A stretch of DNA of 62,162 bases, filler included, from Ionaspis alba (GCA_964255285.1; 7 parts of 7 records of this genome joined end to end with filler, not necessarily neighbours in it), one strand, 5' to 3'. Counted from the first letter of the whole stretch, positions 24,111 through 26,662 are shown. The notes: generated by a model from the sequence alone, not told the origin. Translations and numbers: made by a program.

Positions 24111-25193
24111 CTAATAGCTTTGGTGGAAGGAGTTCTCTGGCCCTGGTTGCCATATAGGATCCGTCTTGATCTGATGTGCTTTGCCCCACTCACGGATCTT
24201 GTCAAAATTTCGACCTAGACAATACATCAGCTACGCTGTCTTTGGCAACTTCGTCGAGGAAAAGACTCACACGTATGAGTGACTTCCAGCCTCGGCAATG
24301 GAATAGCTCGAGGCTCAAACCATCGCCAGTATACTGTTGCGACGTCGCCATGACACATAATTGATTGTCTGATAGCATCCACGCAGTGATCTGCGTCGGC
24401 AACATGTCAGCTTTTGTTCTTTATAATAAAAAGTTGGAGGTCGCACCCAGATGCTTTGCATCAATGCTCGTATAGTTCCTCATTGCCCTGGCAGGCGGTG
24501 ATCGATCGGCAATAAAATAGTCATCGAATGTGTCCCAGTATCTTTCCGGATACATAGCTTTTCGAATAGAATTGAGACAATGCAGCTGGTGGAAGACGTC
24601 TAGCTCAACTATGTACTGAGAGTCCTCTGTATCGGGAATGAGCTCGGTAGCATTTGGAAGTAGACGAGCTTGAGAGTAAGGGATCTGGGAGACACCGACT
24701 GAAAATCGTTAACCGAGAGAAGAGCAGAACATACGCTGAGAAACTGACAGTTGTAGAGGTCCTCCCAGAGAGCATCTGTTTCGTCGGTTGGCATGCCACC
24801 GTCTGGAAGCTCGATATCTCTGCCCATGTAACGACCTTTGGTAGCGAAGTTCTCTTCGAAAACTCTGGTCTCATACTCGATAACGCTTTGTGCCGGTGCT
24901 TTGGACGTAAATGTCAGTCAGCCTGGTGATAGTCTGTGCGATATATGGGGTGGCGGCTGAGTGAACATACAATAGATCCTCTGACTTAGGTCTCGGCATT
25001 CTCGAGATCTATCAAGGAGCGATAGATATGTCACAGTCAAGGCACCAACAAAGCAGTAGAGTAGGAAGATATGTAGAATAACATGGACGCGGTAGTTGCG
25101 TTTCTTAGGCAGACCCTGTGCTGGAACTTCTTTGGGGAGAAGAGTATCTTCGCACTCGACGGCCGAGTCAACATCTTCTTCGTTGAGATTCAT
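24111..25193 (-). CDS. DUF3328 / UstYa-family oxidase, multi-exon
   Basis: N-terminal TM helix. Spliced reading gives LDVFHQLHCLNSIRK..KHL|DHCVDAIRQSIMCHGD..THT|CRNFDKIREW, with both HxxHC motifs intact. Confidence 0.93.
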
Positions 25194-26309
25194 GACAACA
25201 ATTTTGGGAGGTGTAGAGCTCGACTTGGTCGAGTGAATGTTTTGCAAGCAGGGCAGAGGATTCAAGAACAAAAAGCATTCGTGCTGGAGCTTGTGAGGGA
25301 AATAGCCCGCACTAGGAATTGGGACTTTTGCTTCATTGGACACCTCCAGCTAAGCATCATCACACGGAACAAAGGCAGGCAGCAGAGGTAAGTTCGTTGG
25401 TCCAGCCCGGCACGCTGAAAGAAAGAATTGGGGAGCAATACGTGGTACACACTCGTGGATCTTAAATGTTGGCAAGAGTAGGCTGAGGAGGATATGTAAT
25501 GACGACCAGGCTACTATGAGTAAACACAGAGGCTGAATTCAACAAAGAGATGGGAAAGTCAAATTGATTCATGAGACTGGTACACAAGCACATTGAGTAC
25601 AGCAGTCAAGGTCGAAACTTTTACCTAACTTCTCTCAGCCATCCAACAAGGAACACGACTTGTTCTCCGCACAGTCCTCATAACTCTCATAGGAGCCCCA
25701 CACTTGTAGAGAAGAGCAAGTTTTACACCATGGATTGATATGACAGAAATTGTCAGGGAAGCGGTTTCGGTGTAACCAACCATCTCGTGTAGCATCAGAT
25801 CAAAGTTTCGGGCAAATAAAGCCAGCTGGAAGTCCGAGCCACTCATATCTGGGATCCAAGAAGTGTTCAATGTCGTAACACGGTCTGTCAGTACTTGGAG
25901 ATGTGTTCAACGATATAGTTCACCATAGTCCAGTTGTACAAATGATTGTGCCACTATAGAATGAAGGAACCATTAAAGAAAGTCTAAACACCGAAGTTAA
26001 GGTTGTAGGCACGGAGAAGGACGCCGGAAGTTCTCCAGAGCACACCGAATGGTACTGCTTGAAGCAACAACAGCAATTGCAGACTTCATACCTAGCACAT
26101 GAATCTTGAGACAAAGAAAATTCAATGAATCATTTCCACTATCCTCCCTCAAGCAACCTGTATTACTGCTCTCGAACATCCTTGAGTAGCACAATAGTGG
26201 CCGTAGAACATATTGGACGTAGATCTGGTCCGTTTGTGATCTGAAACTCGGAAGTTCGTCCTGTCCGACTTCGAGACAGACAATATCTCTCCGGGCCTCG
26301 ATCGTCAAG

Positions 26310-26317
26310 TATAAAAG
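26310..26317 (+). promoter_or_regulatory. TATA box
   Basis: TATAAAAG about 120 nt upstream of ATG 26434. Confidence 0.55.
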
Positions 26318-26433
26318 GAAGACACCCCCATATCTGCTCTAAGTATCCATCCAACTCATCCTGACCTTTCTTTCTTTTGACCACTCACAAACCTATAGCC
26401 TTTGTCAAAGTACCCCAAGTCCATCAAATCAAC

Positions 26434-26662
26434 ATGAAGACCGCCACAGCAATCCTTGCCTTTACGGCCTTCGCCAGCGTCATAATGGCCATTCCTGCCG
26501 GTAAGTGGAGCGAAAACAGATGCCGCCACGTATGGCACTTTGCTGATGGGCTGTTAGATCCGGCCAAACGTTCCGAGGCTGTCAAAGAGGTGAATTTTTC
26601 TGGAAACATTTTCCCCGGACATCAACCAGCTGACAACCATTTTTTCCTGCCTAGGAGCTCGA
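26434..26662 (+). CDS. Secreted peptide precursor (signal peptide plus KR), 5' part only; candidate KEP/dikaritin precursor
   Basis: Exons 26434-26500, 26558-26589 and 26655 onward with GT-AG introns give MKTATAILAFTAFASVIMAIPA-DPAKRSEAVKE-EL(D/E). Truncated at scaffold end. Confidence 0.75.

Follow-up and report, generated by a model that had tools for sequence, protein, structure and literature searches.

In the dikaritin clusters described by Ding et al. (2015), as summarized in the portion of Pasinato & Singh (2025; PMC12048977) drawn on here, a tyrosinase, a methyltransferase, several DUF3328 genes and a transporter or peptidase stand together. The same portion of that survey reports 987 clusters for peptides that are ribosomally synthesized and modified post-translationally (RiPPs) in 111 lichen-fungal genomes, with double-HXXHC DUF3328 signature genes across Lecanoromycetes and UstY-type clusters widespread in lichen fungi. 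Some of these lichen clusters contain signal-peptide/Kex2 genes without conserved repeats, for which a single core is raised as a possibility, and the precursor genes of the surveyed UstY clusters were, according to the same text, not found by that survey. Here we describe a locus of this kind at positions 24111 to 26662 of a 62,162-nt stretch of DNA from Ionaspis alba (GCA_964255285.1), referred to in full as the window, in which an intact UstYa/DUF3328 oxidase gene lies head-to-head with a truncated secreted-peptide gene that encodes a Kex2-type KR site. With moderate confidence, we read the two genes as a precursor/oxidase pair of the dikaritin (ustiloxin-type) kind. The pattern of the locus is already described for lichen fungi, so that the locus is a further member of it, and a lead rather than a result because the peptide gene is truncated. 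To call it a new RiPP system, as the initial annotation did, was an overstatement, since lichen UstY clusters, including non-repeat signal-peptide/Kex2 genes, are in print in the text consulted (PMC12048977).

The oxidase half of the locus is complete, and its gene model is as follows.

24111..25193, minus strand, intact UstYa/DUF3328 gene (five-exon model, PF11807, end-to-end alignment to relatives)
25193-24971, minus strand, UstYa exon 1 of the gene model
24898-24749, minus strand, UstYa exon 2
24698-24447, minus strand, UstYa exon 3
24390-24271, minus strand, UstYa exon 4
24214-24111, minus strand, UstYa exon 5

Judged by its sequence, this is an intact and typical UstYa gene, and all features tested agree with family membership: we base this on the scores against the Pfam family PF11807 (UstYa), on the two HxxHC motifs and on the full-length alignment to relatives. 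The spliced model has a coding sequence of 849 nt for 282 amino acids, free of internal stops. Its two HxxHC motifs are HQLHC (residue 161) and HLDHC (residue 207). The latter straddles the exon 3/4 junction, a region that has the sequence AKH[FY]DHCID in the related proteins P0006, P0007 and P0010. The splice junctions agree with those of the full-length relatives P0006 and P0007, and residues 1-282 of the model align to both (P0007, 62%, residues 1-289 of 294; P0006, 58%, residues 1-291 of 291). Its four introns are 50-72 nt long with GT..AG ends, and in two of them a branch motif, GCTGA[CT], can be read. With the PF11807 cut-off at 25 bits, exon 3 reaches 48.3 bits and exon 4 reaches 38.8 bits; exon 2 stays below it at 15.7 bits, and the profile search gave no match to exons 1 and 5. 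The protein also has an N-terminal hydrophobic anchor, its most hydrophobic 19-mer starting at residue 36 with a mean Kyte–Doolittle value of 2.22. When exon 3 served as query in a word-indexed search, 14 proteins out of 35 candidates reached E <= 0.001, and PF11807 was present in all 14. The closest named matches come from the Lecanoromycetes Circinaria calcarea (Q9187_005986, from a metagenome-assembled genome, 76%) and Toensbergia leucococca (MMC12_004558, 67%), and the top matches without names, at 70-78%, from ENA and Logan assemblies. Taken by itself, this gene points to a lichen-forming Lecanoromycete as its most likely host. An intact DUF3328 gene with two HxxHC motifs was what the initial annotation had proposed, with a hidden Markov model check of its identity; the spliced model, its alignments and the profile scores bear out both.

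On the opposite strand, the sequence upstream of the oxidase leads into the peptide gene, which runs to the last base of its contig.

25194..26433, divergent intergenic region of 1240 nt, from reading of the sequence
26434..26500, plus strand, exon 1, 67 nt, 22 signal-peptide codons and base 1 of a D codon that intron 1 splits (phase 1)
26501..26557, plus strand, intron 1, 57 nt, GTAAGT..GCTGAT..TAG
26558..26589, plus strand, exon 2, a 32-nt micro-exon with a Kex2-type KR site and, behind it, an acidic stretch
26590..26654, plus strand, intron 2, 65 nt, GTGAAT..GCTGAC..TAG, with a branch motif as in the UstYa introns
26655..26662, plus strand, exon 3, of which the first 8 nt precede the contig end that cuts the gene

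The ATG at 26434 is 1240 nt away from the UstYa start codon, and an open reading frame scan of the region between them found no convincing frame. It stands in a CAAC-ATG context, downstream of a CT-rich tract (26360-26382) and, further up, a TATA box (TATAAAAG, 26310-26317). The predicted product consists of the 22-residue signal peptide, DPAKR, SEAVKEEL and a D/E codon of which two bases are present. By our own hydrophobicity heuristic, the signal peptide has K at position 2 and is uncharged from residue 3 to 22; the KR, one within the visible part, comes five residues past the signal-peptide exon, and the second KR boundary of a core would lie past the contig end. This agrees with the divergent, TATA-containing micro-exon gene with a signal peptide-DPAKR-SEAVKEEL(D/E) product, 1.24 kb from the oxidase, that had been annotated, save that the ATG is at 26434 and not at 26435.

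Two of the three public sequencing runs listed contain the stretch (X1 and X2), and no RNA run is listed for it. In one X1 variant contig (record 8, 26431-26587) there are eight differences from the window, seven of them in intron 1 and one a silent third-position change in exon 1, a clustering in the intron with a binomial p of 0.0045. The neighbour at 26434 is a real gene, because of its TATA box and CT tract, its two canonical introns, the variant differences that are mostly intronic with one synonymous, and the GCTGA[CT] branch motif common to its introns and two of the four UstYa introns. A frame that is open by chance could be expected to turn up in such a search, since the loose heuristic for a signal peptide plus KR gives a row about every 5 kb (12 in the 62-kb window), and the read-through frame here is open as well; with promoter elements and start context in place, with donor, branch and acceptor canonical in both introns, and with the eight differences distributed as they are, we consider such an accident barely credible.

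In other fungi, too, UstYa genes are found beside a small gene for a secreted KR peptide, often head-to-head. Scanning metagenome contigs with an alignment of UstYa exon 3 gave 304 pattern matches, 60 of them confirmed by tblastn, in 59 loci (numbered L001 onwards) that form 41 groups by identical exon-3 peptide. Peptide genes were sought near them by a repeat scan, by a signal-peptide scan allowing one optional intron and by direct reading of the sequence, and candidates were retained by hand curation if they had repeats, or a canonical intron, a KR and a stop. A small signal-peptide/KR gene lies within 2 kb of the UstYa match in 7 of the 41 groups and, of the 11 groups whose flanks reach 2 kb or more on each side, in 5. 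Four of the seven pairs are divergent, at 1246-1856 nt from the exon-3 match; the window pair is divergent at 1738 nt by the same measure. Because small signal-peptide/KR genes are this frequent beside environmental UstYa genes, and head-to-head at the same distance, the precursor/oxidase pair is the best reading of the locus. The counts also agree with Umemura et al. (2020), who, in the part of the paper used here, find a Kex2-repeat gene no more than 15 genes away from 31.8% of 9399 DUF3328 matches, most often in the adjacent position (PMC7329392).

Five of the seven environmental peptide genes are classical repeat precursors (L016/17, L033-35, L021, L028 and L058). The precursor at L016 10803-11105 (minus strand), also present in L017, has five YP[NS]HGW-KR units separated by acidic EADAQKED-like spacers; it lies about 1 kb from the UstYa relative, on a 98-261-kb environmental fungal contig. 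That of L033 (ATG 8145, minus strand), found in L034 and L035 as well, has two copies of AVAEVWANW. The further signal-peptide/KR repeat genes beside UstYa are these.

L058, ATG 1379, minus strand
L028, ATG 2687, plus strand
L021, ATG 8338, minus strand

One of the repeat genes of L033, L058, L028 and L021 has four copies of an APIDQ-containing unit, and three of these four genes are head-to-head with the oxidase gene. In the environmental repeat precursors, the KR is followed by acidic spacers rich in A, E, D and K, and the SEAVKEEL of the window peptide is alike in make-up. Another reading is that the neighbour is a Kex2-processed repeat protein (KEP) yielding linear, unmodified peptides, pheromone-like or effector-like, while the UstYa enzyme has another substrate. 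Within the consulted part of Umemura et al. (2020; PMC7329392), the surroundings of 78% of 7878 Kex2-repeat proteins contain no DUF3328 gene, so that unmodified ones are the majority; in the window, though, DUF3328 is the immediate neighbour, the visible part of the peptide lacks a pheromone-like motif, and pheromone-type precursors are, in the same text, without a nearby DUF3328 gene in all but three cases. We regard unmodified repeat peptides as very unlikely here.

Closer to the window's own oxidase, two lineages have peptide genes of a different build. Our exon-3 tree holds 29 rows, 27 of 56 unique rows having been excluded as shorter than 40 amino acids, and is poorly resolved; it places the window UstYa among the lichen proteins P0001-P0008, in no well-supported clade and in unresolved order. 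A neighbouring group with 85/92 support comprises L001-4, L005/6, L010/13, L015 and P0009-P0011. Two of its three lineages with flanks on both sides (L001-3 and L005/6) have a short peptide gene beside UstYa, and in the third, L010/13, the signal-peptide scan found no peptide gene near UstYa. The contig of L004 ends just behind the UstYa gene. The short, non-repetitive secreted peptide genes are represented by the following.

L002, 4793-5029, plus strand
L006, 4358-4072, minus strand

In L001-3 the gene has 58 codons and lies 0.8 kb downstream of UstYa on the same strand, its terminal KR being followed by NVDYWNGCEPWIQ; in L005/6 it has 72 codons, is head-to-head with UstYa and continues after KR with DVDSVSWGEWMDED and more, in a model that requires an AAG acceptor. 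Both peptides have one Trp-rich stretch behind the last KR, and those of L002 and L006 may be single-core precursors. The genes of L001-3, L005/6 and the window all open with a signal-peptide exon 64-67 nt long, which a phase-1 intron follows at once; the junction has the form [ILV]-P-x-[DE], and acidic and KR sites come after it. None of the five repeat precursors has an intron of this sort. BLAST found no significant match between the L002 and L006 peptides or between either and the window fragment, and common descent of the three sets of peptide genes is for this reason a lead and not a result. Were it true, the window gene would encode one core in a short precursor instead of a repeat protein. 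In a broader version, the window's UstYa lineage (lichen fungi and the environmental relatives of the sister group) would act on short non-repetitive precursors like those of L001-3 and L005/6, their genes having a signal-peptide exon and a phase-1 intron, with an acidic pro-region that bears KR sites and, after the final KR, one Trp-rich core. This version, a single-core dikaritin type, strikes us as rather unlikely; it would have the window gene stop about 25-40 codons past the contig end.

If the pair functions as its family does, the small gene would encode a secreted pre-pro-peptide, whose signal peptide would direct entry into the endoplasmic reticulum. Kex2 would then cleave behind the KR in the Golgi, and the membrane-anchored UstYa, encoded 1.24 kb off on the other strand, would cross-link or otherwise oxidize the released core.

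The window consists of seven unrelated contigs of 8748-8830 nt, apparently ordered by size, and is not one genomic stretch. The contigs meet at six artificial joints of the form N44-TTAATTAATTAA-N44, which are not biology and over which no feature should be traced.

8831-8930, no strand, artificial joint
17759-17858, no strand, artificial joint
26663-26762, no strand, artificial joint that cuts exon 3 of the peptide gene
35562-35661, no strand, artificial joint
44447-44546, no strand, artificial joint
53315-53414, no strand, artificial joint

Scaffold gaps of 100 N lie at 11898-11997, 30623-30722 and 54966-55065. The oxidase/peptide pair is held by contig 17859-26662, and the peptide gene reaches its last base; that the scaffold ends inside this gene, as had been annotated, is correct. 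For the further claim that tandem repeats broke the assembly we found no support, with all contigs at about 8.8 kb, variant pieces of 144-348 nt in the runs and no rise in depth toward 26662. Across the 1.46 kb from 25200 to 26662, two to three variants are present in X1, as pieces 153-348 nt long that differ at 20-28 positions per 190-280 nt. These variants are about 10% apart, each at a depth of 38-57, as might come from a sample containing several closely related strains or species. X2 has an identical copy of the stretch in pieces of 144-152 nt at a depth of about 3, and two of its pieces extend 43 nt beyond 26662. The run contigs over the stretch also have one unrelated loose end, at 25762. 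The contig end in the peptide gene is most likely an ordinary break in a fragmented assembly of mixed variants, since with several close variants, or low cover, such an assembly breaks anywhere, and all seven contigs have much the same length. The last 15-31 nt of the contig have no second occurrence within the window, and neither the other six contigs nor their ends hold a KR-rich or repeat open reading frame able to continue the peptide gene. Tandem repeats past 26662 are not indicated, and the core may be repeated or single.

Several observations weigh against a precursor/oxidase pair, and some of them speak for another reading, in which the neighbour is a small secreted protein of the ordinary kind, or a pro-protein from which Kex2 removes a short pro-peptide, without functional tie to UstYa and adjacent to it by chance. 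Short KR pro-peptides are found in ordinary secreted fungal proteins as well. The visible part of the gene amounts to 35 codons (the signal peptide, one KR and ten more residues), with no core, second KR or repeat unit in it; the initial annotation had already noted that the core peptide is not visible, and no aromatic core appears in these codons either. Six of the 11 well-flanked UstYa groups are without an adjacent precursor candidate. The curated set of environmental peptide genes is itself a matter of judgement, the loose signal-peptide/KR scan being noisy, with most of its rows in the window spurious. UstYa enzymes, furthermore, also serve non-ribosomal pathways such as that to cyclochlorotine, as the part of Pasinato & Singh used here points out (PMC12048977).

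Homologues of the peptide are likewise missing. With the 76-residue read-through translation of the visible part as query, a word-indexed search of proteins of 41-133 amino acids gave one candidate and that of proteins of 134-2000 amino acids 28 candidates, none of which scored, and phmmer against 1.84 billion representatives gave 0 matches; the earlier remark that the leader matches no recognized precursor is in line with these three protein searches. The visible peptide exons found nothing better than E = 0.6 by tblastn in the 59 metagenome loci. The missing homologues also count against a precursor, but this is a weak test and they weigh little because precursors are hypervariable.

The visible flank of about 6.3 kb points in the same direction. 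It holds one DUF3328 gene plus three other genes, as follows.

within contig 17859-26662, ribulose-phosphate 3-epimerase gene, 5' part
19239-22178, plus strand, intron-less open frame of 979 codons with Methyltransf_11 (29.3 bits), two genes from UstYa
within contig 17859-26662, lysophospholipid-type acyltransferase in two exons (PF01553 and PF16076)

In the 979-codon frame, the N-terminal part is long, Ser/Pro-rich and probably disordered, and the Methyltransf_11 domain is C-terminal. The three flank genes look housekeeping-like, and no tyrosinase, transporter, peptidase or reductase is found in the visible 6.3 kb. Four pieces of the flank genes, compared with the 59 metagenome loci, gave no match and no shared synteny.

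Set against this are the head-to-head position and distance of the window pair, which match four independent UstYa/precursor pairs, the acidic stretch behind the KR, which resembles precursor spacers, and the intron position and junction motif common with the peptide genes of two of the three sister-group lineages. On balance, an ordinary secreted protein is a possibility to be taken seriously, although we doubt it, and the precursor/oxidase pair remains the reading that we prefer. Of the proposal in the initial annotation, a dikaritin/KEP precursor paired with DUF3328, the signal peptide, the KR, the acidic stretch and the recurrence of the pairing stand, whereas no repeat unit or core is visible.

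Lichen fungi are slow-growing and chemically rich, and we know of no ribosomal peptide of theirs that has been characterized. At only 2.5 kb, the oxidase/peptide pair would lend itself well to heterologous expression.

Compared with the systems described, the locus departs from the dikaritin pathways in showing no repeated core in its visible part and no tyrosinase, reductase or transporter on its 6-kb flank, and in belonging to a lichen-type Lecanoromycete. The gene set of the dikaritin cluster of Ding et al. (2015) does not occur on the visible 6.3 kb, where one DUF3328 gene is found. Taking the lichen clans as they appear in the excerpted survey (PMC12048977), the locus also differs from Clan R1, whose tyrosinase/O-methyltransferase/FGE-sulfatase set is not on the window flank, and from Clan R2, whose GNAT acetyltransferases are absent from the same flank. 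The L001-3 and L005/6 genes differ in having a Trp-rich end after 58 and 72 codons, respectively, and those of L001-3 in lying on the same strand as UstYa instead of head-to-head. KEPs, as treated in the consulted part of Umemura et al. (2020; PMC7329392), are defined by tandem repeats, and the window gene is seen only up to the contig end; it is like them in its signal peptide, early KR and acidic spacer. The features of the precursor class that the neighbour has are a signal peptide (by heuristic), one KR and adjacency to DUF3328. A larger cluster, if there is one, would lie beyond the contig end; otherwise the unit would be minimal, as in asperipin-2a, whose layout, in the available text of PMC12048977, the window resembles with a single UstYa gene and no tyrosinase in view. 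As in the dikaritin, or ustiloxin-type (ust-RiPS), systems in general, among them ustiloxin (UstA with UstYa/Yb), phomopsin and asperipin-2a (AprA with AprY), a double-HxxHC DUF3328 gene adjoins a gene for a secreted KR peptide, and this signature gene is of the Lecanoromycete type, with the double HXXHC of the lichen clusters in the portion of Pasinato & Singh consulted (PMC12048977).

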